DNA of 64,000 bases from an uncultured Bacilli bacterium (GCA_947625625.1 CANQPC010000001.1:25258-89257); one strand, 5' to 3'; shown: positions 10,899 through 64,000, numbered from the stretch's first letter. Notes: generated by a model not told the origin, from the letters alone. Numbers and translations: made by a program.

Positions 10899-12638
10899 AT
10901 GGCTTATATCAGTAATGAAATCATTAATGAAATAAGAAATAGAACTGATATAGTAGAAGTAGTATCAAAATATGTCAATCTTACTAAAAAAGGAAAAAAT
11001 TATATTGGAGTTTGTCCTTTTCATGACGATCATTCGCCAAGTATGAGTGTAAGTCCTGAAAAGCAAATATTTACTTGTTTTTCTTGTGGAGCTACGGGTA
11101 ATGTGTTTACTTTTGTAGCGGACTTTGAAAAAATTTCGTTTATTCAGGCAGTACAATTACTAGGAGAAAAAGCTGGTATTAATATTTCAAATAGTGATAA
11201 ATTAGTAGATAATAAGAAAGATGATTATTTTGAAATATATGAACTGGCTAATAAGTTTTATCAAAATAGTTTATTTACTAGTTTGGGAAAGAATGCTGTA
11301 GAGTATTTAGAAAATAGAAAAATTAGCAAAGATACAATTAAAAAATTTGGTATTGGTCTATCAATTCAAAAGGTATCTTTGACGGATTACTTGGTAAATA
11401 AGAAGTATTCTATTCAGAAATTAAATGATATAGGTCTTACTAATGATAACGGGAAAGATGTTTTTATTAATAGAATCATGTTTCCGATATATGATTTGAG
11501 TGGAAATCCGGTTGCTTTTTCGGGTAGAATATATAATACAAAAGATACTTCGAAATATGTGAATACTAAGGAAACTGATAAATTTAAAAAGGGTAAAATA
11601 CTATATAATTATCATATTGCTAAAGAGCATTTGAAAAAGAATGATACTGTAATAATCATGGAAGGGCAGATGGATGTTATCAGGGCCTCGACAGTGGGTA
11701 TTAATAACTGTATTGCTACAATGGGAACTGCTCTTACAAGAGATCATAGAAATGTATTGAAGAATATGGCCGATAATATTATTTTATGTTTTGATGGGGA
11801 TACTGCCGGAGAGAAGGCAACGCTATCGGCAATTGAGCTTCTTTTAGATACTGGAGTTAATATTAGAATAGTTAGATTACCTGATAATATGGATCCTGAC
11901 GAGTATATTTTGAAAGAGGGAAAAGATGCTTTCCTTCGGCAAATTGATTTGGCTGTCAGTGTAATTGAATATAAAATGGAAATCTTAAAAAAAGATAAAA
12001 ATTTAGGAGATGCTAGAGATATATCTAACTATATTAATTCTGCGATTAAAGAGATTGCTAATGAAAAAGATGATATTGTCGTAGAACTTAATTTAAAAAA
12101 AATTGCTACTAATTTTAATGTCGAATATGAAACGATACGAAAAAAGTATGATGATTTTAAGACAAAAAATAGAGTGATAAAAAAAGAAGAAATAAAGGTA
12201 AAGAAAACTTATGATAGATATAGAAAAGCGGAGAATAATCTCATATACTATATGCTTAAAAGTAGTACAGTACTCAATATGGTAGAAAAAAGAGTTGGGT
12301 ACTTTCCAACAAAAAATATTAGAGATTTATCGAATGAAATTATTTACTATTTTCATAAATATGGTATAATAAATGTCGCTGATTTTATTAGTTATATATC
12401 TTTTTCAGATGAATTATTAGGAACCTTAAAAGATATTTTAGCTATGAATATAAAGGAAGATTTTCAGGTAGAAGAAATAGAAGATTATATTTTTGTTATA
12501 AGTGAGTATTATAAAAAGAAGAAAATAGATGAACTGACAAAAATGATGAAAGAAGAAAAAGATCCTTTAAAACAAGCTAAAATACTTGGAGAAATTATGG
12601 AAATAAGGGGAGTGAGAAAAGATGATACCAGAAATTAA
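10899..12638 (+). CDS. dnaG: DNA primase
   Basis: Zinc-binding [10 protein letters not shown]...C.SCG motif, TOPRIM (IMEGQMD..D.D), followed by sigA as in the macromolecular synthesis operon. Confidence 0.9.
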
Positions 12639-13722
12639 AGATTTTGAAGAAAGAAAAGAAAATTTAATTAAAAAAGGTAAGGAACTTGGATTTATTACTT
12701 ATGAAGAATTAGCGGAAGAATTAAAGGGACTCGAAATTGGAAGTGATTTACTTGATGAGCTTTATAATTCTCTTATCGAAAATGATATCAGTATTGTATC
12801 AGAATCTGATTTAGATGATGATTCTGACGACGAAGCTAGCGGTGGTAGTCTCGAAGATATTTTAAAAGATGATAATATTGCTAAAGAACTTACTATTAAT
12901 GATCCTGTCAGAATGTATTTGAAAGAAATTGGTAAAATTAGTTTGTTATCTCTTGATGAGGAAAGTGAACTATCGGAAAAGATAGCTTCCGGTGATGAAA
13001 TGGCGAAGAATAGACTTGCCGAATCAAATTTACGTCTAGTTGTATCAATTGCTAAGAGATATGTTGGAAGAGGAATGCTTTTCTTGGATTTGATTCAAGA
13101 GGGTAATATTGGACTTATGAAGGCTGTCGAAAAATTTGATGCTAATAAGGGTTACAAGTTTTCGACATATGCTACTTGGTGGATTAGACAAGCTATTACG
13201 AGGGCAATTGCCGATCAAGCTAGGACAATTAGAGTTCCAGTTCATATGGTTGAAACAATTAACAAGCTTTCGAGATTTCAGAGACAGTTGACACTTGAAT
13301 TAAATAGAGAACCAACAGATGAAGAGTTGGCAGAAAAGATGAATATGACGCCTGAAAAGGTTCGAGAGGTTATTAAAATCGCTCAAGATCCTGTGTCTTT
13401 AGAGACTCCTATTGGAGAAGAAGAAGATTCACATTTAGGTGATTTTGTACCTGATGAAAGTAATATGTCTCCTGAAGATTTTACTATTCATGAAATGTTG
13501 AAAGAAGAAATTTCAGATGTTCTCCTTACTCTTACGGAAAGAGAAGAACAAGTACTTAGACTTAGATTTGGACTTGATGATGGCTGCTGTAAAACTTTGG
13601 AAGAAGTAGGGCAGATGTTTGGAGTAACGAGAGAGAGAATTAGACAAATTGAAGCGAAGGCACTTCGTAAACTCAGACATCCATCGAGAAGTAGAAAACT
13701 TAAGGATTTCTTAAATGAATAA
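12622..13722 (+). CDS. sigA: RNA polymerase primary sigma factor (sigma-A)
   Basis: Regions 1.2-4 conserved ([18 protein letters not shown].., [28 protein letters not shown]). Confidence 0.9.
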
Positions 13723-19519: not shown

Positions 19520-19620
19520 TAAAGTTCCTCCTTCCAAAACTAATTATAATTCTATCAAAAAATTAGTAAAAAAGCAAATATTTTCGGCGTTTTTTGGAAA
19601 AAATATTATTGGTGAAGATG

Positions 19621-20643
19621 ATGGGACATGAAATTGATTTGAAAAATTATGAAATTAGGACGGATTTAATACTGGATTCGATTGAAAATAAGAGTGTTGA
19701 TATCGAGAAAGATATTAAAACTTCTGATGATATTAAAGTTACGAAAGTTTTTGTCGATAAAGATAATGGGAAACTTCTGTCTAAAAAAGAGGGTAATTAT
19801 GTGACAATAGAATTTAAAGATATTACAGATACGGGAAATAAAGATAAACTTACGGATGCTTTTTCTTGTGAACTTAAAGATATGCTAAATAAACTTAATA
19901 TTAGTAGTGATGCTTCAGTGTTAATAATTGGACTTGGTAATGAAAAGAGTACGCCAGATAGTTTGGGGCCAAAAGTAATAGCAAATATTGTTGTAACGAG
20001 ATATTTATTTGTATTAAAAGAGGATGTTAAGAAAGGAGTTAGATGTGTATCTTCAATTAGTCCGGGGGTAATGGCAAATACGGGAATTGAAACTTCTTCG
20101 ATTGTGTCGTCATTAGTTAAGGAAATTCATCCGGACTTTTTAATAGTGATAGATGCTTTAGCTGCTTCATCAATCGATAGAATTAATAAGAGTATACAAA
20201 TTACAGATACGGGAATTCATCCGGGAAGTGGGGTTGGAAATATGCGAAGAGAAATAAGCTTTGATACAATGGGGATTCCTGTTATTGCCATAGGAGTTCC
20301 GACGGTTGTCGAGTCCTCTATTATTGTATATGATACAATTAATTATTTATTCAAACATATATCTTATATAAAAGATAATCAAAGTAAGAATAAACTTATT
20401 TTTAGTAGAAGTAATTATGCAGATAAAATTAGAGATAAAGATTTATCTTTGGAAGAGAAAAAGGAAATTAGTGGAATGATTGGGGAATTATCTGATAGTG
20501 ATAGACAGAGCTTAATATACGAAGTCTTAAGTTCTCTTAATTATAATTTTATTGTTACACCTAAAGAAATTGATTTTTTAATCGATAGACTTACAGATGT
20601 TATAGCGGGTGGTATCAATAATTCACTACATGATGAAGTGTAA
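19621..20643 (+). CDS. gpr: Germination protease (spore SASP-degrading endopeptidase)
   Basis: N-term ..IDLKNYEIRTDLIL.. and ..IIGLGNEKSTPDSLGPKV.., ..GIHPGSGVGN.. match GPR; rpsT-gpr adjacency as in Bacillus. Confidence 0.8.
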   Translation: MGHEIDLKNYEIRTDLILDSIENKSVDIEKDIKTSDDIKVTKVFVDKDNGKLLSKKEGNYVTIEFKDITDTGNKDKLTDAFSCELKDMLNKLNISSDASVLIIGLGNEKSTPDSLGPKVIANIVVTRYLFVLKEDVKKGVRCVSSISPGVMANTGIETSSIVSSLVKEIHPDFLIVIDALAASSIDRINKSIQITDTGIHPGSGVGNMRREISFDTMGIPVIAIGVPTVVESSIIVYDTINYLFKHISYIKDNQSKNKLIFSRSNYADKIRDKDLSLEEKKEISGMIGELSDSDRQSLIYEVLSSLNYNFIVTPKEIDFLIDRLTDVIAGGINNSLHDEV

Positions 20644-28181: not shown

Positions 28182-29438
28182 ATGGTACCATTTAAAAAAG
28201 CAAATATATTAATTCCAAAGAATGTCGATATGACAAAGTGGAGTGTCGTAGCATGCGACCAATATACTAGTGAGCCTGAATATTGGAAAGAGGTAGAAGA
28301 AATAGTAGGTGATGCGCCATCAACACTTCGAATTACTTTACCGGAAATATTTTTAGAAGAAGATGATGTCGAAAAGAGAATAAATAAAATTAATTCGGTA
28401 ATGAAAGAGTATGTCGATAGTGATTTATTTGAAGAACTTACTGATTCAATGATATATTTGGAGAGAAGACAAAGTGATGGAAGAATAAGAGAGGGTCTTA
28501 TTGGAATGGTCGATTTAGAAGATTATTCTTATGAAAAAGGCTCACAGTCATTAATTAGAGCAACAGAAAAAACAGTAATAGAAAGGATTCCACCTAGACT
28601 TAAAGTACGAGAGAATGCTTCTTTAGAGCTTCCACATATTATGATTTTAATCGACGATGAAAAAGAGGAAATAATTGAGAATTTAAAAAAGGAAGTTACA
28701 GAGAAAGATGTAGTATATGATTTTGACCTTATGGAAAATGGTGGTCATATAAAGGGTTATAAATTAAGTGACGCCTCTATGGAAAAGGTTATCGATGGAT
28801 TAGATAGACTTGCCGACAAGGATTATTTTGAAAAGAAATATAATGTTACTGATAAAGGAGTACTATTATTTGCAATGGGAGATGGTAATCATTCACTTGC
28901 TACGGCAAAGGCTAATTATGAGAATTTGAAGAAGACATTAAGTAGAGAAGAATATTTGAATAATCCCGCTAGATATGCTCTCGTTGAGCTTGTTAACTTA
29001 CATAGTAGTGCATTAGAATTTGAACCTATACATAGAGTTATCTTCGATACTGATGTTACAAAATTAGTAGATAGTCTATATAAGTATTACGATATAAATG
29101 AAGATGGAGAGGGACAAGAATTTGAACTTGTAACTAGTGATATCGATAAGAAACTATATATAAGTAATCCGAAATCTAATATTGCGGTTGGCTCTATTCA
29201 GATGTTCTTGGATGATTATTTGAAAGATAATAAAGGTAAAATAGACTATATACATGGAGATGTTACTACTAGAGGTATGGGTATGGAAAAAGGTAATGTG
29301 GCAATATTATTTAAGGCTATGCCTAAGAGTGAATTATTTAAGACGGTTATCTTAGATGGTGCTCTTCCTCGAAAGACGTTTTCAATGGGACATAGTTACG
29401 ATAAGAGATATTATTTAGAAGCAAGAAAGATTAAGTAG
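28182..29438 (+). CDS. DUF1015 family protein
   Basis: Length and conserved core consistent with DUF1015. Confidence 0.6.
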   Translation: MVPFKKANILIPKNVDMTKWSVVACDQYTSEPEYWKEVEEIVGDAPSTLRITLPEIFLEEDDVEKRINKINSVMKEYVDSDLFEELTDSMIYLERRQSDGRIREGLIGMVDLEDYSYEKGSQSLIRATEKTVIERIPPRLKVRENASLELPHIMILIDDEKEEIIENLKKEVTEKDVVYDFDLMENGGHIKGYKLSDASMEKVIDGLDRLADKDYFEKKYNVTDKGVLLFAMGDGNHSLATAKANYENLKKTLSREEYLNNPARYALVELVNLHSSALEFEPIHRVIFDTDVTKLVDSLYKYYDINEDGEGQEFELVTSDIDKKLYISNPKSNIAVGSIQMFLDDYLKDNKGKIDYIHGDVTTRGMGMEKGNVAILFKAMPKSELFKTVILDGALPRKTFSMGHSYDKRYYLEARKIK

Positions 29439-32692: not shown

Positions 32693-33985
32693 ATGAATGA
32701 AAATATTAATGCTGATAGAGAACAAATAAAAGCTAATTTAAAGGAAGCTAGAGATGCTTTTTATGGAAGTATAAAAGGTGTCTTCTCTTCTTTGAAGAAT
32801 TATGCGAAGATTTCTGTGTCTTCAAAAAAATTATTTTTTAGTGATTTTAATAATAAGAGATTATTAAGAGAGCTTAATAAAAAAGAAGCTAAAATGCAAA
32901 AAATAGCTAATAGGCTTGGCATAGAATTATTAGTTCAATATGATAATAAACTTAACTTCGGTAGCAAGCAAGAGGTAAATTCTTCTAATGCTGAAGTAAC
33001 TGTAAGTGATAATTTAGAAAATGTTAAGTCTGAAAAAAGGGAAAAGAAAAAGCATTTTTCTTGGTTTAAAAGAAATAATAAAGATTCTAAGTTAGAAAAT
33101 GATTTTGAAGTTCAAGAAGTTTCTGCTTCTGATGAAATAGAAACTAATCCAGTTGAAACTATTAATAATGTCAGCGATAATGATGGTGAAATGGTTTCTG
33201 ATGTTACAGAAGATAATTTAGCCGAAATTACTAATGACATCAGTGGTAGTGAAGAGGAAGTAACTGATTCTGATGAAGTAAAAGATAATCTTGAGATTGT
33301 TCTTGATGAAGATAGTGAAGAAGAAATACTCGATGATAATAAGGAAAATAACAAAAGTAAACATTCGTTTTTCTCAAAAATTAAGAATATATTTAGAAGA
33401 AAGTCTATTTCTTCAGAAAGTTTAGAAAATGATTTAGACAATGAAACAGATGTGGTAGATAATTCATTGGAAAATGAAGATGAACCAACAGTAGAATCTA
33501 TCGAAGATTCAACTAAATCTGATAGTTCAGTAGTAATTCCAGTTGAGACTAAGAGTGAAAGTAAAGATGAGAATGCTAGTTTACCAAAAGTAAATAATAA
33601 CGAACCAAAAGTAAATAATAATGAACCAACAGTAGTTGGAAAATATTATAATTATGCATTTGAAGAAATTGAAGGTGACAATAAAAAATTGGAACTTAAT
33701 AATTCAACTGTTCCTGAAGTTACTTCAAAGTCTAAAATGAAAAATGGTATTTCTAATAGATTACTTAATAGTAATTTTGGTTTGAATTTAAGAATTGCTT
33801 TCCAAAAGGTTGGTATTGCTTTACTTACTGCAACTAACTTTACGACTGAAAAAATTGCGGATTTTTGTGATAGACGCCGAGAAAAAGATTTGAATGATTT
33901 ACGCGAGTTAAGAGAAATGGCTATTAATTCTAAAGGGTCAATATCTTCTTCTAATGGTATGGTTAGAAGAAAAAGTTTACAATAA
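32693..33985 (+). CDS. Highly acidic Ser/Glu/Asp/Asn-rich hypothetical protein with in-frame 21-bp tandem repeat (PKVNNNE x2)
   Basis: ORF track; low-complexity acidic central region; RBS GGGGG. Confidence 0.4.
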   Translation: MNENINADREQIKANLKEARDAFYGSIKGVFSSLKNYAKISVSSKKLFFSDFNNKRLLRELNKKEAKMQKIANRLGIELLVQYDNKLNFGSKQEVNSSNAEVTVSDNLENVKSEKREKKKHFSWFKRNNKDSKLENDFEVQEVSASDEIETNPVETINNVSDNDGEMVSDVTEDNLAEITNDISGSEEEVTDSDEVKDNLEIVLDEDSEEEILDDNKENNKSKHSFFSKIKNIFRRKSISSESLENDLDNETDVVDNSLENEDEPTVESIEDSTKSDSSVVIPVETKSESKDENASLPKVNNNEPKVNNNEPTVVGKYYNYAFEEIEGDNKKLELNNSTVPEVTSKSKMKNGISNRLLNSNFGLNLRIAFQKVGIALLTATNFTTEKIADFCDRRREKDLNDLRELREMAINSKGSISSSNGMVRRKSLQ

Positions 33986-34742: not shown

Positions 34743-36650
34743 ATGTTTACTAAAGGTATTCATAAGAGAATTAGAATAGTATTGCTCGGTATTTTAATTA
34801 TATTTTTAACTATTGTTTTGAAAGTATTTTATATTGAAGTTATCGAATATAAGAAACTTAATACTCTAGCTAGTAATTTGTGGAGTAGGAATTTACCAAT
34901 TGAAGCTGATAGGGGGAAAATATTTACAGTTGATGGAGAAGTAGTGGCGGGTAATCTTACGACGACTTCTTTGGTTTTTATTCCTAATCAGATTAAGAAT
35001 AAGGATTTGGTAGCAAGTAAAATTAGTGAAATTTTAGGGGTAGATAAATCTTTAATAGAAGAACATTTATATAAAAGTTCAATGATGGAAAGAGTGCATC
35101 CTGAGGGAAGAAGGCTTTCTTATGAAGTGGCAGATAAGATAGAATCTTTAAATTTTGATGGAGTATATTTACTTAAAGAATCGAAAAGATATTATCCTCA
35201 TGATGAGATGCTTTCGCATATTTTGGGTTATGTTGGTATAGATAATCAGGGGTTAAGTGGATTAGAACTCGAATATGATAAATATTTGACGGGAGAATAT
35301 GGTTCAATTCAGTATTTTTCTGATGCAAAAGGGAATAATTTGGAAAGGAATTCGGTGTATGTAGAGCCAGAAGATGGTTTAGATATTTATCTTACTGTTA
35401 ACTATGACATACAGTCTTCGATTGAAAGAGAATTAGATAATATAGTTACTAAGTATAGTCCGGAAGGGGCATGGGCGATAGCAATGGATCCTAATAACGG
35501 GGAAATACTTGGGATGAGCTCACGACCTAATTTTAATCCTAATAATTATCAGGATTATGATACGGAAACTATTAATAGAAATATGGCTATTTGGGCTAGT
35601 TATGAACCAGGTAGTACTTTTAAAATTCTGACACTGAGTGCTGCGATTAACGAGGGAAAAGTTGATTTGATTAATGATACTTTTTATGATGGAGGATCAG
35701 TTAATGTCGATGGAGCGAGAATTAAATGTTGGAAGGCTGGAGGACATGGAGCACAGACATTTTTAGAGGTTGTGCAAAACTCTTGCAATCCTGGCTTTGT
35801 AGAACTAGGCAGGAGATTAGGGAAGGAGACTTTATTTGATTATATTGATAAATTTGGGTATGGTAAAAAGACGGGAATAGATTTGAATGGAGAAGCTTCA
35901 GGAATACTTTTTAATCTTTCAAAAGTTGGTCCAGTTGAGCTTGCGACGACTTCTTTCGGTCAAGGAGTAAGTGTTACAGCGTTACAACAAGTAACAGCGG
36001 TTAGTGCCGCGATTAATGGGGGAACTTTATATAGACCCCATATTGTTAAAAGAATAGTGGAACATGAAACAGGACAGATAATTGAAGAAGTTGAGCCTAA
36101 AGTAGTAAGAGAAAATATAGTTACTGAAGAAACTAGTGAAATGGTCAGAATGACTTTGGAGTCAGTAGTATCTCTTGGTACTGGTAGAAATGCTTATATT
36201 GATGGTTATAGAGTAGGTGGAAAGACAGGAACAGCTCAAAAAGTTAATAATGGAGCATATATGCAAGGTAATTATATAGTATCTTTTATTGGCTTTTTAC
36301 CCGCTAATGATCCTAAAATTGTCGTCTATTTAGCTATTGATAATCCTAAAGGAATAACTCAGTATGGAGGAACGGTATCGGCACCGATAGTTAAGAATAT
36401 TATGGAAGATGCTATTATAGCTCTTGATATTGAAAAACAAGATGGTGGAACGGAGAAAAAATATCAGTGGTACGATAAAAAATATTATATGGTGGAAGAT
36501 GTCGTAGGACTTACTAAAAAAGAAGCTACTTCTGTACTTAAGAAGTTTACAGTTGAATATACTGGTAGTGGAGACAAAGTAATTAGTCAATCTCCAGAAG
36601 CTGGTAATCGTATTGCCGAAGGGGAAGCAGTTAGGATTTACTTGGGATAA
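34743..36650 (+). CDS. Penicillin-binding protein 2B / SpoVD-type class B PBP with C-terminal PASTA domain
   Basis: N-terminal TM, dimerisation domain, transpeptidase motifs STFK (AxxSTFK), SCN, KTGTA; PASTA at C-terminus. Confidence 0.85.
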   Translation: MFTKGIHKRIRIVLLGILIIFLTIVLKVFYIEVIEYKKLNTLASNLWSRNLPIEADRGKIFTVDGEVVAGNLTTTSLVFIPNQIKNKDLVASKISEILGVDKSLIEEHLYKSSMMERVHPEGRRLSYEVADKIESLNFDGVYLLKESKRYYPHDEMLSHILGYVGIDNQGLSGLELEYDKYLTGEYGSIQYFSDAKGNNLERNSVYVEPEDGLDIYLTVNYDIQSSIERELDNIVTKYSPEGAWAIAMDPNNGEILGMSSRPNFNPNNYQDYDTETINRNMAIWASYEPGSTFKILTLSAAINEGKVDLINDTFYDGGSVNVDGARIKCWKAGGHGAQTFLEVVQNSCNPGFVELGRRLGKETLFDYIDKFGYGKKTGIDLNGEASGILFNLSKVGPVELATTSFGQGVSVTALQQVTAVSAAINGGTLYRPHIVKRIVEHETGQIIEEVEPKVVRENIVTEETSEMVRMTLESVVSLGTGRNAYIDGYRVGGKTGTAQKVNNGAYMQGNYIVSFIGFLPANDPKIVVYLAIDNPKGITQYGGTVSAPIVKNIMEDAIIALDIEKQDGGTEKKYQWYDKKYYMVEDVVGLTKKEATSVLKKFTVEYTGSGDKVISQSPEAGNRIAEGEAVRIYLG

Positions 36651-36703: not shown

Positions 36704-37579
36704 ATGGAGATTATTAATATTTCAAAGAAAAAGCTCGATAGTTTAGAACCTTTTACTTTGCCTAAAAATGTTATTAGTACAGAATGTGAATTATTTAAAT
36801 TTAGATATCGAGGAGTAGATAGATTAGTAAAAAAATTATTTAATAATGATGGATTAGTATTTGCTAATAAGCTTTATACTCTTCAAGCAATCAGTGCGAA
36901 TTTAGATTATATACCAGAATACTTTGTAACTCCAGATTTCTTGCTTTCAATTAATAAGTCAATCGAAGCTTTTGTTATGCCAATTTTAAATGGTATTAAT
37001 ATTAGTATTATTCTAAATGAGAAGGAGTCTAATGTTTCTCTCGAAGAAAAAAAATATTACTTGAAAAGAATAGGCGTAATATTAGAACAGATGAAAAATA
37101 TTAGAAAATATACTCCGCTAACTGACTTTTATTTGGGAGATTTGCATGAAGATAATTTTTTAGTCGATCCTAGTAAAGTAGATTTAAGTGTTGTCGACGT
37201 CGACAGTATAAAGATAGCGGGAAATAAAACAAGTCCTTCGAAGTATCTAACACCTTTTGGGTTACTCAGTGTCGTCTCTGGAAAATATAAGGAGAGAGAC
37301 AATGACTCTTTTGGAGCTTATGAGGCTGATGAAAATACTGATTTATATTGTTATAATATCATTGTTTTGAACTTTTTATTTGGTAGTAGCATTAACAATA
37401 TTGAAATTACAGAGTTTTATAAATTTATTAACTATTTAAATGATTTGGGTGTCGATAAGAATCTTTTGGAATCTTTTAATAGAATTGTATGTAATTCTAA
37501 TAATATTAATCCGATGAATTATATTGATTCTTTAACTCATAAGCAAATTTATAAAGCTAGAAGTCGTGAATATAAATAA
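36704..37579 (+). CDS. Protein-kinase-like / phosphotransferase (APH/CotS-like fold) hypothetical protein
   Basis: Catalytic-loop-like LGDLHEDNFLVD and DxD-like VVDVDSIKI; occupies the position usually held by murE between the PBP gene and mraY. Confidence 0.45.
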   Translation: MEIINISKKKLDSLEPFTLPKNVISTECELFKFRYRGVDRLVKKLFNNDGLVFANKLYTLQAISANLDYIPEYFVTPDFLLSINKSIEAFVMPILNGINISIILNEKESNVSLEEKKYYLKRIGVILEQMKNIRKYTPLTDFYLGDLHEDNFLVDPSKVDLSVVDVDSIKIAGNKTSPSKYLTPFGLLSVVSGKYKERDNDSFGAYEADENTDLYCYNIIVLNFLFGSSINNIEITEFYKFINYLNDLGVDKNLLESFNRIVCNSNNINPMNYIDSLTHKQIYKARSREYK

Positions 37580-38659: not shown

Positions 38660-38697
38660 AAAAAACTATAAGTTTTAAAGGCTTATAGTTTTTTTAA
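38660..38697. terminator. Bidirectional terminator (AACTATAAG-loop-CTTATAGTT) between mraY and convergent ftsW-like gene
   Basis: 9-bp perfect stem flanked by A5/T6. Confidence 0.6.
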
Positions 38698-39773
38698 GTT
38701 CTGCTTATGTTTAATAGAATACCCATACTTATTAAGCTAATTATGAGGCTACTTCCTCCGTATGATAGAAAGGGGAGTGTTACTCCGGTAACGGGAATTA
38801 ATCCGACGACGACCATTAAATTTAGCATTGTTTGAAAAGCTAAACCAAAAGTTATTCCGAAGGCTAAATATTTACCAAAGGTATCTTCGGTTTTAATGGC
38901 TATTTTAAATCCTCTTACGATAATGGTAATGAAAAGAATAGATACAATTAGGATACCCATAAAGCCAAATTCTTCACTTATAATGGAGAAGATGAAATCT
39001 GTCTGCGGTTCAGGTAAATAGAAATGTTTTTGAATTGAGTTTCCAAATCCTAACCCTAATAGACCACCTGGACCAATAGCATAGAGACTTTGAATTATTT
39101 GAAAGCCATCTCCCAGCGGATCAGACCAAGGATTTATGAATGATATAATTCTCTCTAAGCGGTATGGAGCGATAAGAATTAAAATTACTATTCCAATTAA
39201 ACTGGCAATACCTATTTTGACAAAGAAATTCATTTTGACACCACTTACGAATAGTAGAACTATTATTGTCATAACGATAACAACACCGGTTCCGAAATCG
39301 GGTTCAAGCATAATTAATGCGAAGATTAACATTACAATACCGAGAATTGGAAGTACACCTTTCTTGATGTCTTTTATTTCTCGAGCATTTTTTTCGAGGT
39401 ATTTGGAAGTAAATATAATTAGTCCTAATTTAGTAAATTCAGAGGGCTGAATACCAAAACCTCCTATACCAAACCAACTTCGACTGCCGTTTCTAACTGT
39501 TCCTATGCCGGGAATTAAGACAAGAATAAGTAAGATAAGGCAAATACCAAAGATGATATTCGAAAATTTTTTGTAATTTTGATAGGGAAATCTTGATATG
39601 ATAAACATGACAATATAGCCAACAATTAAAAAGAAGGACTGTGATTTTAAATATTTGAAGGGGTCATTAAATTTATATTCGGCCCAAACGTACGATGAAG
39701 AATAAATCATAATTGTTCCAAATATACTGATTATAATTACTGCGATTAAAAGAGGTAAATCGTATTTTTTCAT
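38694..39773 (-). CDS. FtsW/RodA/SpoVE (SEDS) family peptidoglycan glycosyltransferase
   Basis: 10-TM SEDS architecture, conserved ..PEPQTDFIF.. and ..LPFLSYGGSS.. motifs. Confidence 0.85.
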   Translation of the reverse strand: MKKYDLPLLIAVIIISIFGTIMIYSSSYVWAEYKFNDPFKYLKSQSFFLIVGYIVMFIISRFPYQNYKKFSNIIFGICLILLILVLIPGIGTVRNGSRSWFGIGGFGIQPSEFTKLGLIIFTSKYLEKNAREIKDIKKGVLPILGIVMLIFALIMLEPDFGTGVVIVMTIIVLLFVSGVKMNFFVKIGIASLIGIVILILIAPYRLERIISFINPWSDPLGDGFQIIQSLYAIGPGGLLGLGFGNSIQKHFYLPEPQTDFIFSIISEEFGFMGILIVSILFITIIVRGFKIAIKTEDTFGKYLAFGITFGLAFQTMLNLMVVVGLIPVTGVTLPFLSYGGSSLIISLISMGILLNISRT

Positions 39774-39854: not shown

Positions 39855-40391
39855 CTAATTCTTTTCGAAGATAGATATTATTTTAGCGGTTAAATAGACA
39901 ATTTTATGATTGTTTTTAATGGCAATATTTTTACAGTAGGCTTTTCCACCGATAGTTAACGATGCGATAAAAGCAGTAATTAGCAAGCTTACAATGAAAC
40001 TGTCTACGTTTAGAAGTTTAGAAATAGCAAGGGAAATGGTTACTCCGGCCGAACCAGATATGATTCCACATATATCTCCAATGACATCATTACAAAATGA
40101 TGAAACAATGCTGGCATTTTTTTTAAAATTGACAGCTTTTTTAGCGCCTTTCATTTTTTTGGAACTCATAGCATGGAGGGGCTCTTCATCGGTACTTGTC
40201 ACTGCGACTCCTATCATGTCGAAAATAATGCCTATAATAATAAAGAGAAGCAAGATAATAATATCAATTATGATATTTACTTTAGGCATAGTTGTTTCGG
40301 AGATAAATGAAAAAATGAAAGAGATAAAGAAGGCGATAATGGTAACTTTTAGTACCCAATAATTTTTCTTTGTTTTGGTGTTTTTTGACAT
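39855..40391 (-). CDS. Small 4-TM membrane protein; candidate OapA-like partner of upstream large ncRNA
   Basis: 178 aa (~20 kDa), four predicted TM helices, conserved-looking acidic loop TDEEPLHAM; start lies 19 nt after the ncRNA terminator so it must be transcribed by read-through. Confidence 0.4.
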   Translation of the reverse strand: MSKNTKTKKNYWVLKVTIIAFFISFIFSFISETTMPKVNIIIDIIILLLFIIIGIIFDMIGVAVTSTDEEPLHAMSSKKMKGAKKAVNFKKNASIVSSFCNDVIGDICGIISGSAGVTISLAISKLLNVDSFIVSLLITAFIASLTIGGKAYCKNIAIKNNHKIVYLTAKIISIFEKN

Positions 40392-40410
40392 AATTTATTT
40401 CCTTTCTTAA

Positions 40411-40436
40411 TAAAAAAAGGCTATGCGAAGCCTTCT
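40411..40436 (-). terminator. Rho-independent terminator on minus strand (AGGCTTCGCATAGCCT + T7)
   Basis: On the minus strand the hairpin is followed by TTTTTTT; lies between ncRNA and the 4-TM gene. Confidence 0.6.
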
Positions 40437-41018
40437 TTATTTATAAAATGGCAATTTTTATAGTTAACTTTATGTCTTAGGTCAAGTAGGATTTCCCTCT
40501 TTTCTACATTTCGTTACCAAAATGCGGTTCCCCTTTAAAGAAAAGAATATATTGTTACCAGATATATGACTTGATTACCACTTAGTACATACTGTAATCC
40601 TATAAAAATGTCACTCTAGGAGATTTCCTCGAGCAATGAACTTACTATTAGTTCTCTTTTGCAACGATGGTTTCAAATTGCAATATTAAGTAAAGTTAGC
40701 TAAGCTTTATTTAACTGAATCAATTATTCCCCATAATCACGCAAGACAAGCTACGCTACTCGCAAGTTTCCCCGCCTAGTAGGTTTAATCCTAGTTCGCA
40801 TCATGCCTCTTATCGCAAAATGCAAAGATAGGTCTCCACGAATATTGGAACAGAATCATATGCCATTATGAGTGCCCAATAATCTACCTTCCAGCATCCA
40901 CCCTAAACTGGGCGTATAAAGCAGACACAAGAAGTTTCACAGGTGTGCTCTTTAGTGAGTTTTTAGGCTCACCTTCATAGTAAGCTTTAATTGACTAGAA
41001 TAATGTGCCATCAATATG
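40437..41018 (-). ncRNA. ~600-nt highly structured non-coding transcript; candidate OLE-like (ornate large extremophilic) RNA or other large ornate ncRNA
   Basis: No ORF >=60 aa in any frame across ~800 bp; GC noticeably higher than flanking DNA; many local hairpins (e.g. CUAGGAUUAAACCUACUAG, GGUGAGCC..CUCAC); bounded by consensus promoter and intrinsic terminator on the minus strand. Confidence 0.45.
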
Positions 41019-41024
41019 TCATTA

Positions 41025-41053
41025 ATTGTAACATAAAAAAGATAAAATGTCAA
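41025..41053 (-). promoter_or_regulatory. Consensus sigma-A promoter on minus strand: -35 TTGACA, 17-bp spacer, -10 TACAAT
   Basis: Reverse complement of 41048..41053 = TTGACA; of 41025..41030 = TACAAT. Confidence 0.5.
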
Positions 41054-41113
41054 ATTTGTGTCAAGTTTTTTAAGTTATTACTACAATAGTATTATATGAT
41101 TAAATATTTGATT

Positions 41114-41148
41114 CTTGACATAGAATTTGAATATTGATATTATATATT
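41114..41148 (+). promoter_or_regulatory. Sigma-A type promoter TTGACA-17-TATTAT for GH3 gene
   Basis: Sequence match. Confidence 0.4.
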
Positions 41149-41206
41149 TAGTTAATAGGAATAATAGTTATGAATATAAAATATATTTTATTACGAGGTG
41201 ATTTAA

Positions 41207-59235: not shown

Positions 59236-59433
59236 ATTTTTTCTTTTTTTTGATTAATTTTCCTCACTTTATCTAATTTCATTTATTTTTATTCCCTCCT
59301 TACTTTAGATACGATTTATTGGGTCGTATTTTTTTTTTATTTAATTTTATGTTTTTGTGATATACTTAATTTAAGAGAGGTGATTTGACAAAAATAGATG
59401 AAATAATTATAATACTCGCCTGAGGTGAGGAAA

Positions 59434-60429
59434 ATGAGCTTTGAAGATGCTTATGAGGAATTTAAAATCTATGCTTCAAAACGGCATAAAAAAGAAAGTT
59501 TTGGAAATATTACTCGCGATTTTAATTGTAAGATATTACCTTATTTTGAGGGGAGAAAGATAGAGTCATTAACTAAGAATGATATTCTTAGGTGGAAAGA
59601 TGATTTATTATCTTTTGATTATAGTAAAAAATATCTTTCAAAATTATATTATGTTTTTTGTATTTTCTTTGATTATTGTTGCCTTTATTATGATATAGAA
59701 GATAATATTGTTAGAGATGTTGGTAATTTTAAAATTCAGCCTAAAAAGGTAAAAAGTGATTTTTATACTAGACAAGAGTTTGAACGTTTTATTACTGGCT
59801 TTGATAATATAGTTTATAAGTCATTTTTTATACTTATGTTTTATACTGGTTGTCGTCCTAGTGAGGCTATGGCTTTGAAGTTTAGTGATGTAAGAGGCAA
59901 GTATCTTTCTATTAATAAGTCAATAGAGAGAAGAGGGGAAAGAAATATTTGTACTACAAAAAATGTTTATTCTGTTAGAGATGTTATTCTTTGTAATAGA
60001 GTTCTTTCCTGTATTTCTGATTTGAAAAAATATTATATAATTAAATACGGGCAATTTTTCGAAGATTATTTTATCTTTGGAGGCATTAAGCCATTAAGTG
60101 GTACTTCTATTGATAGATATAAAAAAAAGGCTTGTGAGAGGGCTAAAATTAGGTGTATAACTCAACATCAATTTAGACATAGTTATGCTACTTATTTAAT
60201 TAGTAATGGTATTCCTATTAATACTGTTTCTAGATTGCTAGGACATAGTAGTGTTGATACTACTGCTAGAATTTACGTACATCAAGATTTGAGCCAAGAA
60301 AAAAGAGTATTAAATACTCTTAATTCGCCGATATTTTCTTTTGGAAATATTACTCGCGATTTTAATTGTAAAATATTACTTTTTTTAAAAAGAAAAATAT
60401 CTATCTTAAAACATTTTTCAATGTTTTAA
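59434..60429 (+). CDS. Tyrosine site-specific integrase/recombinase (phage integrase family) with repeat-derived C-terminal extension
   Basis: C-terminal catalytic region RHSYATYLISNG..LGHSSVDTTARIYVH (R..H..R..Y); GAGGTGAGG RBS before ATG 59434. Confidence 0.75.
   Translation: MSFEDAYEEFKIYASKRHKKESFGNITRDFNCKILPYFEGRKIESLTKNDILRWKDDLLSFDYSKKYLSKLYYVFCIFFDYCCLYYDIEDNIVRDVGNFKIQPKKVKSDFYTRQEFERFITGFDNIVYKSFFILMFYTGCRPSEAMALKFSDVRGKYLSINKSIERRGERNICTTKNVYSVRDVILCNRVLSCISDLKKYYIIKYGQFFEDYFIFGGIKPLSGTSIDRYKKKACERAKIRCITQHQFRHSYATYLISNGIPINTVSRLLGHSSVDTTARIYVHQDLSQEKRVLNTLNSPIFSFGNITRDFNCKILLFLKRKISILKHFSMF
59499..59539. repeat. 41-bp direct repeat copy 1 (inside 5' end of int)
   Basis: TTTTGGAAATATTACTCGCGATTTTAATTGTAA(G)ATATTAC; 40/41 identical to 60339..60379. 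Confidence 0.6.
60339..60379. repeat. 41-bp direct repeat copy 2 (3' end of int)
   Basis: See copy 1; encodes the same FGNITRDFNCKIL peptide at both ends of Int. Confidence 0.6.
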
Positions 60430-60432
60430 TTC

Positions 60433-60455
60433 AAAGTGGTGACCAGTATGGAATT
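60433..60455. repeat. attR: 23-bp repeat overlapping tRNA-Glu 3' end
   Basis: Exact match to 58073..58095. Confidence 0.6.
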
Positions 60456-60513
60456 CGAATCCATGAATGCTGCCGTGAAAGGGCAGTGTGTTAAGCCACT
60501 TCACCAACTGGCC
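60437..60513 (-). tRNA. tRNA-Glu (anticodon UUC)
   Basis: Reverse complement GGCCAGUUGG...CUUUCAC...UUCGAAU...ACUGGUCACCA folds as cloverleaf; encoded CCA. Confidence 0.8.
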
Positions 60514-60519
60514 AAAAAA

Positions 60520-60596
<77 letters not shown>

Positions 60597-60668
60597 ATTT
60601 TTGCATTGCTTTTACATTATATCATAGAAGAAACTAATTGACAAGTATTTTTGCAAAAAACATAAAAA

Positions 60669-60744
60669 TGGTGTCCCCTTAGGGATTCGAACCCTAGACC
60701 CACTGATTAAGAGTCAGTTGCTCTACCAACTGAGCTAAGGAGAC
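60669..60744 (-). tRNA. tRNA-Lys (anticodon CUU)
   Basis: Reverse complement GUCUCCUUAGCUCAGUUGGUAGAGCAACUGACUCUUAAUCAGU...GGGGACACCA. Confidence 0.75.
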
Positions 60745-60999: not shown

Positions 61000-61102
61000 T
61001 TAATTAAACTAGAGAATATAAGTTCTCTTTTTTAGTGTCTGAAGTAATTGACTTTTATATAGGGATTTGTTATAATTTATTATGATAAGGTAGCGTGATG
61101 AA

Positions 61103-64000
61103 ATGAGAAAATTAGGTGGAAAAAGTTTTTGGATAATTTTAGGAATTAGTATGTTATCATTGATAGTTTTAACTGTCGGGGTAATCTTTTTAACTAGAGA
61201 ATCAGAAGAAAAGTTTTTACAAGCTGGGTATATTATAAGTAGTAATGCTACAAAAACTAATCGTTATTTTTTTGATGATGATACTGTTTATAAAGAAAAT
61301 ATATTTGATGAATATGTTTTTACTGATTCTAACAATAAAGAAGTAACTACTAGTAAAGATAATTTTATTCATTACTTAGATAATTCTATTTCATTTATGA
61401 AAAATGGTGTTATTTTAGACTTGGGCGGTTTAGATACATCTTTAGTTCCTTATTATAATATTACTAATAAGTCTGTTATTAAGTATAACAATGGTGGCTA
61501 TTATGTCGAGACAAATGATAAGACGTTAGTATTTAGTAACTTTTTAGGAAAGATAAATGATGATAAATATATAGTTGCTGGCTCTAAAGTTAGGGTTAAG
61601 CTTGCTGGAAACGATGAAGAAGTAAATGGGGAATATTTTGAAATTTTATTTGTCGAAGATGGTATTGTAAAAATAGAAAATGAAGAGGGTAGTTATCAGA
61701 CAGTAGCGGATGGTACAATTATCTATGTTGGAGATGATATTAAAATAAATCTTGGTACGGGAGAATTGTCTAAAGGTGATGAAAAGAAATTAACACTATC
61801 GGAAATGACAATTGATGGTAATGAAAATATCGATATTGTCCCTCAAGATGGATTAGTCGACAATCCTCAAGATGAAGATAATACTGACAATGGTAATAAT
61901 GATAGTGAAAATAATATTGAAAATAATTCTGACAATGGAGAACAGGACAATGAGAATATCGAAGGAACTGAAGGTAATGGTTCTGTTCTTAAGAAAGAAG
62001 TGTCTGTCGACTTACTAACGGCTGAAGTTGGTATAAATTATATTAATGCTAGTTTTCAAGTTATCGATACAGCAAATATTATTAAAGGTAATTTGGTTGC
62101 AACTTTGACTAATATGACAACTGGAGATATTGTCAACCGAAAAATATTAGAAAACGTCAGCGATATACAAAACTTTAATACTAGTTCGTTATCTCCTGAT
62201 TGTACGTATTCGATGACTGTTATCGAAGAAAATAATACTTCTGGTATTGAATATTTTAGAAGAGTTTTTAATACTGAGACACTCGACCTTCGACTTATTA
62301 GAGATTTAGTTACAACTGACTCTTTATCTTATGTTTTAGATTTTGGAATTAGTAGCGGGGTTAAGTCTGCGAATGTATCTGCTTTTGATAAAGACAATCA
62401 TCAGGTTGGAATTACACATACGATAGTGAATGGTGATACTGATGGTGTTACTTTCGAAGGATTAGAAAAGAATTCTACTTATCATATTGTCGTCGATTCG
62501 GTAATATTTGATAATACTAATTATGCACAAGTCTACAAAATAGAGACGAGTGATATGACTTTGAAAGAGAAACCAGTTCTTGGAAATATTTCAGTTTCTA
62601 CTGATATTGATAATGGAAAGTTTACTCTTAAGATGGAAGAACCAATAGATACCGACGATAGCATAGTTAGATATACTTATGAAATATATAGTGAAGATGA
62701 TTTAAAGAAAGATATGATTCCTTCACCTGTATATGTTTATCATCAAGAAGAGCTTAAAGATTTGACTTTAACTTACGCACAAAGTAAATTGGAAGAGAAG
62801 AAAAATTATCTTTTTAGAGTGGTAGTTGAATATTATGATAATTATAAATATAATGAAATAGAAACCGCGAATAGTGAATATTTTATGGTTTTGGGTAGAC
62901 CAAAAATTGAGTTTATTCCTGAAAATGTCGATTTTAATCAGATTATTGGTACAATTAAGATGGAAGATGATGGATGTACTATTCCTTTCGAGGGAAGAGT
63001 ATGTGGTACTGATACTTACAATGAGACAAGTAATATTATCGTCCGCTACAGAAGTGCTCTATCTAGCAGTTCGACGACAATTAAAGATAGTGTCTTTGTA
63101 CCAGATGAAACGGAAGAGAATGTTTATAATATGAAACTTCATCTCACTGGACTTACAGAAAATACAACATATATTTTTGAAGTTTATGCTGATATTGATT
63201 TGAAAAATGGAGCAGGATTACAAGTAGGACAATATATAGGAGGATTTACGGTAACTACTAAGGGTATCGATGCTCTTAAAATGCAAAATTGGAAGCAAAA
63301 TTCTTCGGTCTATGAAACTCCTATTTCTGTAAGTGGCGAGATGGTATCGACAGTAGCGGAAAGTGATTATTCTGATAAGTTAGCTAGTTTGACATTTAAG
63401 CTATATCAGGGTGATGTTTCTAAAAATCTTAAAGAAGGTGTTTCGGTCGATTCACTTAAATCTTTTACAGATACGGAAAGTGTAGCGGAGAAATATTATA
63501 ATAAAGAATTTTCTATTACTTCAAATATGTTTGGAATTACTAATTTAGATGAGCTTAGAGAGTTATCAGGTGGTAAGCTCAGCAGATATTATACTATCGA
63601 AGTAACTGATGCTTATGATGCTGATAGAGCTAATAGATTTGAGATTTTAGATAATATATTTGTATTTGAAACACCTTCGATATTACTTCTCGAGGATGAA
63701 GTAGAAGCTCCGACTATTATAGTGGAAGAGCTTACAAATAATCAAATGCGTTCGAATACTTTTACTAAAAAGTATGATTCTAATTTGGGAAATAATATTG
63801 TAGTAGGTTATAGAGTAATTGCTAACTTTAATAAAGAGAAAATTGAATCTTATTTTCAAGGTAATACTCCTGTCATGTCAATTAATTTTCATATATATAA
63901 AAATGGTAAGGAAGTTAATATTGCTCCTGAAGATAGAACAATTGATTTGACTAATGAGGATTCTAAGACAAAGTATTTCTTCTTGGATTATGGTACTGAT
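61103..64000 (+). CDS. Very large surface/cell-wall-associated protein (3' partial; open to window end), N-terminal signal anchor, repeated beta-rich (FN3/Ig-like) modules
   Basis: Frame open for 966 codons to the window edge; N-terminal TM FWIILGISMLSLIVLTVGVIFL; repeated ..TYxFxVxA.. blocks. Confidence 0.55.
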   Translation, partial: MRKLGGKSFWIILGISMLSLIVLTVGVIFLTRESEEKFLQAGYIISSNATKTNRYFFDDDTVYKENIFDEYVFTDSNNKEVTTSKDNFIHYLDNSISFMKNGVILDLGGLDTSLVPYYNITNKSVIKYNNGGYYVETNDKTLVFSNFLGKINDDKYIVAGSKVRVKLAGNDEEVNGEYFEILFVEDGIVKIENEEGSYQTVADGTIIYVGDDIKINLGTGELSKGDEKKLTLSEMTIDGNENIDIVPQDGLVDNPQDEDNTDNGNNDSENNIENNSDNGEQDNENIEGTEGNGSVLKKEVSVDLLTAEVGINYINASFQVIDTANIIKGNLVATLTNMTTGDIVNRKILENVSDIQNFNTSSLSPDCTYSMTVIEENNTSGIEYFRRVFNTETLDLRLIRDLVTTDSLSYVLDFGISSGVKSANVSAFDKDNHQVGITHTIVNGDTDGVTFEGLEKNSTYHIVVDSVIFDNTNYAQVYKIETSDMTLKEKPVLGNISVSTDIDNGKFTLKMEEPIDTDDSIVRYTYEIYSEDDLKKDMIPSPVYVYHQEELKDLTLTYAQSKLEEKKNYLFRVVVEYYDNYKYNEIETANSEYFMVLGRPKIEFIPENVDFNQIIGTIKMEDDGCTIPFEGRVCGTDTYNETSNIIVRYRSALSSSSTTIKDSVFVPDETEENVYNMKLHLTGLTENTTYIFEVYADIDLKNGAGLQVGQYIGGFTVTTKGIDALKMQNWKQNSSVYETPISVSGEMVSTVAESDYSDKLASLTFKLYQGDVSKNLKEGVSVDSLKSFTDTESVAEKYYNKEFSITSNMFGITNLDELRELSGGKLSRYYTIEVTDAYDADRANRFEILDNIFVFETPSILLLEDEVEAPTIIVEELTNNQMRSNTFTKKYDSNLGNNIVVGYRVIANFNKEKIESYFQGNTPVMSINFHIYKNGKEVNIAPEDRTIDLTNEDSKTKYFFLDYGTD

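Follow-up and report, generated by a model that had tools for sequence, protein, structure and literature searches.

A locus with the hallmarks of an intact ole-oapA module in an uncultured Bacilli bacterium

OLE (ornate, large, extremophilic) RNAs have been known since 2006, have their own family in Rfam and have been catalogued in more than 2,800 genomes of Bacillota, including those of RF39, whose RNAs were also covered by the OLE survey of Fernando and Breaker (2024). Work in Halalkalibacterium (H.) halodurans and Clostridium (C.) acetobutylicum describes a highly abundant, membrane-localised RNA that dimerises and is held at, and possibly through, the cytoplasmic membrane by dimers of the protein OapA (OLE-associated protein A); later papers credit Block et al. 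(2011) with the biochemistry by which OapA binds OLE as a dimer and tethers the RNA to the membrane. The OLE particle has a role in withstanding cold, short-chain alcohols, excess Mg2+ and poor carbon sources, perhaps by way of an OapA activity related to the CNNM/MpfA Mg2+ transporters. Its function may overlap with that of MpfA, whose gene would be unusual in a genome that carries OLE. What OLE does biochemically has yet to be established. Here we analyse a 64,000-nt stretch of DNA from an uncultured Bacilli bacterium (GCA_947625625.1 CANQPC010000001.1:25258-89257; hereafter the window, numbered from its first letter), in which a large RNA gene and the gene of a membrane protein follow one another on the minus strand between positions 39,855 and 41,053. 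An earlier reading of the window, made from the sequence alone, had proposed that they are an OLE-like RNA and a co-transcribed OapA-like protein.

This locus is almost certainly a standard, intact ole-oapA module, in which the ~600-nt RNA belongs to the OLE class and the downstream open reading frame (ORF) is OapA; nothing contradicts the identity of either the RNA or the protein. With the OLE of H. halodurans and C. acetobutylicum it shares its length of about 600 nt, the conserved sequence blocks, nearly all helices including the bulged GNRA hairpin P13, a position directly upstream of oapA and a Bacillota host. It differs in that a near-consensus promoter of its own precedes it and a hairpin resembling a terminator stands at its 3' end, whereas the H. 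halodurans RNA is embedded in and processed from a long polycistronic transcript; it also lacks one small hairpin (model positions 424-435) and is very A+U-rich (36% G+C). Its neighbours are also different: spoVE/ftsW, mraY, a SpoVD-type penicillin-binding protein (PBP) and a glycoside hydrolase family 3 (GH3) enzyme take the place that an isoprenoid and DNA-repair cluster holds in the model species, although the literature already lists cell-wall and sporulation genes among those associated with OLE. As a discovery the module matters little: OLE is long known and catalogued, and the ole-oapA pair described here is already known, being found by standard Rfam annotation in a clade that has been catalogued before. 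The case validates the reasoning of the sequence-only reading and gives a clean annotation of the locus. A role in stress tolerance and at the membrane would be taken over by analogy from the H. halodurans and C. acetobutylicum literature.

The identity of the RNA was established by a scan of the complete window with every one of the 4227 families of Rfam. OLE (RF01071) matched the minus strand at 41027..40432 with 394.7 bits (E 1.8e-112; gathering score 50), in an untruncated alignment that spans model positions 1-616 and 596 nt of the window, the first ~10 model positions overlapping the -10 box of the promoter described below. Both partners of 154 of the 159 base pairs of RF01071 are present, 140 of these 154 as canonical pairs. 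The window and the whole alignment of its clade lack the small 4-bp hairpin of model positions 424-435. The conserved OLE sequence blocks are all found, namely GAUGGCAC, UAUUCUAGUC, the GCCCA loop, AAUGGCAU, GUGGAGACC, GGAUUAAACCU, GAGGAAAUCUCCUAGA, ACUAAGUGG, GGGAAAUCC and GACCUAAG. The RNA architecture is the essentially complete conserved OLE set, including the P13-type GNRA hairpin and its bulge. From the predicted start to the U-tract the non-coding transcript measures roughly 605 nt, the size expected of OLE, and the mature or primary RNA likely runs from ~41018 to ~40412. As in OLE loci, oapA comes next downstream in the same orientation. The fallback of the sequence-only reading, a possibly undescribed structured RNA, is unneeded.

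The same scan speaks to the idea that the RNA is another housekeeping RNA (RNase P, 6S or signal recognition particle RNA), a riboswitch leader of the membrane protein or a decayed coding gene. Region 40400..41060 contained no match to any of the scanned families besides OLE, and hence none to RNase P, 6S, signal recognition particle RNA, ROOL, GOLLD or raiA. The longest ORF on either strand of that region has 33 aa, which bears out the earlier statement that the transcript holds none. Compensatory changes over 116 base pairs (see below) would be unexpected for a pseudogene, and the transfer-messenger RNA (tmRNA) of the window sits elsewhere (50740..51097), as the sequence-only reading had noted. 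We found no point in support of a housekeeping RNA or a decayed gene, a reading refuted by the Rfam scan, the covariation and the ORF length and left with a negligible probability.

Two bulk properties of the region had also been anticipated. The G+C content of the OLE region is 36%, reaching 0.38-0.39 in sliding windows over 40600..41049, where the flanking spacers come to 0.22-0.26 and the neighbouring genes to 0.29-0.35; the rise that had been called clear is real but modest. The minimum free energy (MFE) of the region is -165 kcal/mol, with z = -3.58 against shuffled sequences, in agreement with the many hairpins that had been described.

Stronger evidence for the fold comes from related loci. 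Starting from the 178-aa protein aligned with its close homologues, we fetched 80 loci from species-representative genomes. A search with nhmmer using the window RNA as query found an OLE homologue in 76 of the 81 loci searched, encoded on the strand that carries the oapA homologue and mostly directly upstream of it, and all 16 relatives sampled across the range matched Rfam OLE at 311-429 bits. We aligned 73 full-length OLE copies with MAFFT (64-91% identical to the window RNA, median 74%) and projected the Rfam consensus structure onto this alignment through the window row; the alignment was thus not fitted to the structure, and the structure had been derived independently of these 73 sequences. 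Standard pairs occupy 88.3% of the cells, and sliding the 3' partners by 1-3 columns lowers this share to 36-44%. Changes on both sides of a pair occur in 116 of 154 pairs, and none of 500 shuffles equalled the observed values. The Rfam OLE fold is therefore strongly backed by covariation in the homologous loci, the check that the sequence-only reading had suggested.

The relatives vary in ways that can be read from alignment columns 215-250 and 337-397 of loci L002-L080. Most carry an apical insert of ~20 nt (GCCUAUACA...UUGAYGGAC) in the hairpin at model positions 198-241, which the window RNA and its nearest relatives lack; the same hairpin is a mere stub in six loci (L042, L061, L067, L070, L072 and L075), and the apex of the long 286-384 arm is missing in two (L055 and L077). 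In seven loci (L014, L017, L019, L051, L054, L062 and L073) the gap between OLE and oapA is 340-3200 nt instead of ~40 nt; something is inserted there between the two genes. Six ole-oapA loci stand in records titled Bacteroidaceae or Muribaculaceae (L019, L029, L036, L040, L045 and L055) and group with metagenome-assembled genomes (MAGs) of Bacilli. These records are probably mis-binned contigs; OLE hits outside Bacillota have been described as resembling assembly or transfer artefacts (PMC11332333).

Two finer elements of the RNA deserve mention. At 40547..40567 on the minus strand (model positions 479-500), the RNA forms a P13-type hairpin, AUAUA-U-CUG[GUAA]CAAUAUAU, with a GNRA tetraloop (GUAA) and a single bulged U; its helix, number 18, covaries in the 73-sequence alignment. 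The GNRA loop and the bulge of P13 are required for OapB binding in H. halodurans OLE (PMC7936274), which makes the hairpin at 40567..40547 a putative OapB site. The MFE fold also proposes a possible closing helix between GAUGGCA (41006..41012, minus strand), whose sequence is conserved, and UGCCAUU (40447..40453, minus strand). This helix lies outside the Rfam model; 75.7% of its cells are paired, against at most 48.6% when slid, and it shows few compensatory changes, which amounts to modest support.

The related loci also indicate what kind of host carries the module. Almost all come from uncultured gut MAGs titled Bacilli, Tenericutes or Mollicutes, and Clostridium sp. CAG:302 is among them; the family CAG-302 belongs to the order RF39 (PMC7676259). 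The titles of the closest loci (Bacilli, Firmicutes or Tenericutes, and Clostridium sp. CAG:302) place the host within the Bacillota, the phylum of known OLE hosts, and the host appears to be an RF39-like lineage of gut Bacilli, judging from these relatives.

Such a host raises the question of whether the RNA is OLE of the reduced "variant" type found in small-genome gut clades (RF39, TANB77), working with OapA alone in place of a set that includes OapB and OapC. The gut origin of the relatives (Bacilli, Tenericutes and Mollicutes MAGs, and the CAG:302 genome) fits this possibility, as does the one relative that is a complete chromosome of 1.46 Mb (L027). According to Fernando and Breaker, OapB and OapC are largely missing from RF39 and TANB77 and shortened OLE variants are common there; hairpin 424-435 is missing from the window and its clade. 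Their "full-length" class requires at least 390 bits under their own model, the first of three cut-offs (390, 310 and 235 bits), and full-sized P7, P8 and P9 helices; the 394.7 bits of the window RNA lie near that boundary, though their model differs from that of Rfam. Neither OapB nor OapC was seen in the window, which at 64 kb is uninformative: a tblastn search with a published OapC sequence gave no match there or in the fetched loci, and Pfam showed no L7Ae-type protein among the small ORFs of the window. On the other side, every other Rfam helix is aligned in the window RNA, including hairpins 198-241 and 249-277, which we take as P7 and P8 by a numbering inferred from positions in PMC9723947 and which are missing in variant 2. 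It also keeps the GNRA loop and bulge of P13, the OapB site that is often missing in variant 1. The window RNA thus looks like the full-length type, as judged by the Rfam helices and the inferred P-numbering, and a variant-type OLE is possible but less likely.

The second component of the module, oapA, lies at 39855..40391 on the minus strand and encodes a protein of 178 aa (19.4 kDa, isoelectric point 9.6). Compared by BLASTP with C. acetobutylicum OapA (sequence printed by Kretsch et al. 2025, PMC12286853, in Supplementary Table 4), it is 40% identical over 169 residues (E 4e-34). The block FCNDVIGDI-GI-SG, which contains the DxxxD motif, is identical in the two proteins. The motif itself (D102-VIG-D106, 40088..40074) has both aspartates invariant in 17 homologues, and in the lysine-rich loop (residues 76-91, SSKKMKGAKKAVNFKK, 40166..40119) K78, K79, K84, K90 and K91 are invariant among homologues. 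An AlphaFold model (pLDDT 73) shows four long hydrophobic helices (residues 4-37, 40-66, 93-127 and 131-159), in line with the ~20-kDa protein with four transmembrane helices that had been predicted; in a Kyte-Doolittle profile helices 1, 2 and 4 give clear peaks and helix 3 a weaker one. In the literature, OapA is weakly homologous to the MpfA CNNM domain, carries a distinctive DxxxD motif and has four transmembrane helices; a loop with clustered positive charges is proposed to lie on the cytoplasmic side, and its predicted structure is matched best by CorB 7M1U. The window protein shares the DxxxD block, the lysine-rich loop, the four long hydrophobic helices, a mass of about 19 kDa and a CNNM-like fold with CorB 7M1U at the top, and differs from OapA in the length and sequence of its N- and C-terminal tails, with otherwise nothing of note. 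On this sequence and model evidence the 178-aa protein is OapA.

The relationship of the protein to the CNNM family is weak. Foldseek ranked the MtCorB structures 7M1T and 7M1U at the top, the Pfam CNNM/DUF21 match stayed below threshold (21.1 bits, cut-off 28.4), a sequence search of the PDB reached CorB at E 0.12 only, and no NCBIfam model matched the protein. A transporter of the MpfA/CorB type was rejected, as CNNM is below threshold and the protein has no CBS or CorC domains: it ends at residue 178, without the CBS pair and without the CorC/HlyC domain of MpfA, CorB and CorC. It also carries the DxxxD motif, which is absent from CNNM domains, and four transmembrane helices where CNNM has three. 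At the conserved CNNM proline (GEIGPK in CorB) the aligned position of the window protein reads TIGGKA.

One difference from H. halodurans is how the module seems to be transcribed. A sigma-A-type promoter lies on the minus strand at 41025..41053, exactly where TTGACA-17-TACAAT had been placed by the sequence-only reading: the -35 box TTGACA (41053..41048) and TACAAT (41030..41025) are separated by a 17-nt spacer and make 11 of 12 consensus matches, and a TG at 41033..41032 gives an extended -10, TGtTACAAT (41033..41025). A promoter scan taken alone is not significant, with 8 promoter-like sites in the region against 11.6 expected from shuffled sequences. The promoter is credible because it is conserved in relatives and not because of the scan: 68 of 72 have at least 10 of 12 matches at the same register to GAUGGCAC, 29 of them perfect, with TTGACA, a spacer of 16-17 nt and, in almost all, a TGn-extended -10. 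From the usual spacing of 6-8 nt, transcription is predicted to start at about 41019..41017, ~10 nt before GAUGGCAC. The gene of the housekeeping sigma factor, rpoD, is itself within the window (12622..13722). The intergenic stretch that separates ole from the GH3 gene (41054-41206) contains a second minus-strand TTGACA (41064..41059), which precedes the ole -35 by 11 nt, and a divergent promoter-like site on the plus strand (TTGACA-17-TATTAT with TG, 41115..41143).

At its 3' end the RNA has an intrinsic-terminator-like element (40412..40438, minus strand). Its stem pairs AAGGCU (40434..40429) with AGCCUU (40422..40417) around a 6-nt loop, UCGCAU, and is followed by seven U (40418..40412). 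The energy ranges from -8.1 to -11 kcal/mol, varying with the A-U pairs that are counted, as A-U pairs can extend the stem. The hairpin and T7 of the sequence-only reading are thus there, at coordinates that were off by 1-3 nt, and the terminator is moderate rather than strong. A consensus scan listed it on the plus strand only, apparently because on the minus strand the U-tract is paired with the A-run, which consumes the T tail. A search of the literature on OLE RNA and terminators gave nothing on a terminator of ole itself. Among 77 relatives, 52 have a hairpin with an energy of at most -4 kcal/mol and a T-run directly behind it, 25-40 nt past the last conserved OLE block, and the stems vary in sequence with their pairing kept (GGCCUUCGGGCC, GGUCCACGGACC, AGCCCGGGAGGGCU and others). 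The ATG of oapA (40391) comes 20 nt after the last U, where 19 nt had been counted. Its ribosome-binding site, GAAAGGA (40400..40406, minus strand), lies 8-9 nt before the ATG and begins 5 nt after the U-tract; GAAAGGA or AGGAG before the ATG is conserved in relatives. The consensus scan found no promoter-like site on the minus strand between 41025 and the oapA ATG.

In this lineage, the module would then be a self-contained transcription unit. The near-consensus, extended -10 sigma-A promoter would be strong and would drive ole, and most transcripts would stop at the hairpin and U7, giving abundant free OLE RNA. Since no acceptable promoter lies between that of ole and the start of oapA, whose ribosome-binding site begins 5 nt past the U-tract, the read-through fraction would be the sole evident mRNA for oapA, which would in turn put OapA at lower amounts than OLE RNA. 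The earlier statement that oapA "can only" come from read-through was overstated, this being an inference and not an observation.

Several points weigh against this model, which draws on sequence and conservation. H. halodurans OLE is cut from a long polycistronic transcript with no use of a promoter of its own, so that the architecture proposed here is not transferable from the model organism. About a third of the relatives have a T-run alone or nothing recognisable after OLE. A weak TTGACC-17-TATAAA, whose -10 lacks the conserved final T, lies within the 3' end of OLE (40485..40457) and may act as a promoter of oapA. Finally, the 3' hairpin could be a stabiliser, in place of or alongside its role as a terminator.

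The last of these points can be taken further, with the hairpin and U-tract as the protective 3' stem of a processed OLE and oapA transcribed independently or by near-complete read-through. H. halodurans OLE is 3'-processed according to the literature, the stem has just 6-7 strong pairs and -8 kcal/mol, and the hairpin is missing in a third of the relatives; the internal -35/-10-like pair would offer a start for oapA, 24 of 64 relatives having a better -10 after the internal TTGACC. Yet seven U directly after a hairpin is the classical arrangement of an intrinsic terminator, and it is this whole arrangement of hairpin and T-run, not a stem alone, that is seen again in 52 of the 77. In the window and its closest relatives the internal TTGACC has no acceptable -10 behind it, and the U-tract is only 20 nt from the ATG. 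We therefore regard a purely protective stem as unlikely, and the internal promoter at 40485..40457 was set aside for its missing final T and for the lack of an acceptable -10 in the nearest relatives. An antiterminator alternative for the 3' hairpin was also rejected, the complementarity found amounting to just 5 nt.

Under the self-contained unit that we favour, read-through perhaps extends beyond oapA. A SEDS gene of the spoVE/ftsW type (38694..39773, minus strand; TIGR02615 460.6 bits with a cut-off of 448.8, TIGR02614 414.5 bits) lies 81 nt past oapA in the same orientation. This gene is possibly co-transcribed with oapA, because the consensus scan found no terminator-like site between the two, and we treat it as context and not as a core part of the module. 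The same-strand adjacency of oapA and spoVE/ftsW is found in the nearest relatives only (10 loci including L001), the gene being inverted in 6 others, and mraY is nearby in seven of the nearest relatives; in more distant relatives the neighbours change and the promoter-OLE-oapA unit stays. We found no paper in the literature on OLE RNA and spoVE. An extended proposal, in which ole is autonomous and strongly promoted, a leaky terminator sets the ratio of OapA to OLE, and in CAG-302-like genomes read-through enters spoVE/ftsW, strikes us as improbable when taken as a whole. If true, it would couple OLE transcription directly to the expression of a peptidoglycan polymerase and link the OLE particle concretely to cell-wall or sporulation biology.

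What is mildly new, as far as sequence conservation can suggest it, is the clade-wide, apparently self-contained unit of promoter, OLE, terminator and oapA, together with the local linkage to a SEDS gene. In some 70 related gut MAGs the ole-oapA pair comes with a near-consensus promoter of its own and with a 3' hairpin that resembles a terminator, and such a compact unit could suit the expression and dissection of the OLE particle away from the long operon of the model organism.

The surroundings of the module agree with the envelope context that had been described, with the SEDS gene (spoVE/ftsW) and the GH3 hexosaminidase flanking it as claimed. The context of a spore-former has some support, as genes of the GPR, SpoVD and SpoVE types are present, though in a gut clade of reduced genomes in which sporulation is not established. 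The GPR germination protease (19594-20643, plus strand) scores 331.9 bits with a cut-off of 120, and the SpoVD-type class B PBP (34743-36650, plus strand) 736.7 bits with a cut-off of 688. The rest of the window is housekeeping, with holA, dnaG-rpoD, recD2, gpr, gapA, rny, ftsY, murE, rpsB-tsf, the SpoVD-type PBP and mraY. The tmRNA at 50740-51097 is on the minus strand (Rfam 145.2 bits; ARAGORN tag peptide GNSYKNAVAYA), and it and tRNAs, all away from the OLE region, are the remaining Rfam matches in the window.

Three plus-strand ORFs had no NCBIfam match at the thresholds used, 1e-5 or 1e-30: 28182-29438 (418 aa), 32693-33985 (430 aa) and 36704-37579 (291 aa). Pfam, run on the latter two, gave no match either. 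They lie within a stretch of cell-wall and translation genes, 36704-37579 between the PBP and mraY. The last 3 kb of the window (~61090-64000) appear empty in the ORF listing because a plus-strand ORF, at least 969 codons long, continues past the window end. Upstream of it, an ORF of 334 aa that resembles tyrosine recombinases (59425-60429; motif RHSYATYL...GHSSVDTTARIYVH) had no NCBIfam match at E <=1e-30. It is preceded by small orphan ORFs (57537-59235) and ends 8 nt before a minus-strand cluster of tRNA-Glu, tRNA-Ile and tRNA-Lys (60437-60744), and the segment 57537-60744 may be a small element integrated at a tRNA site.

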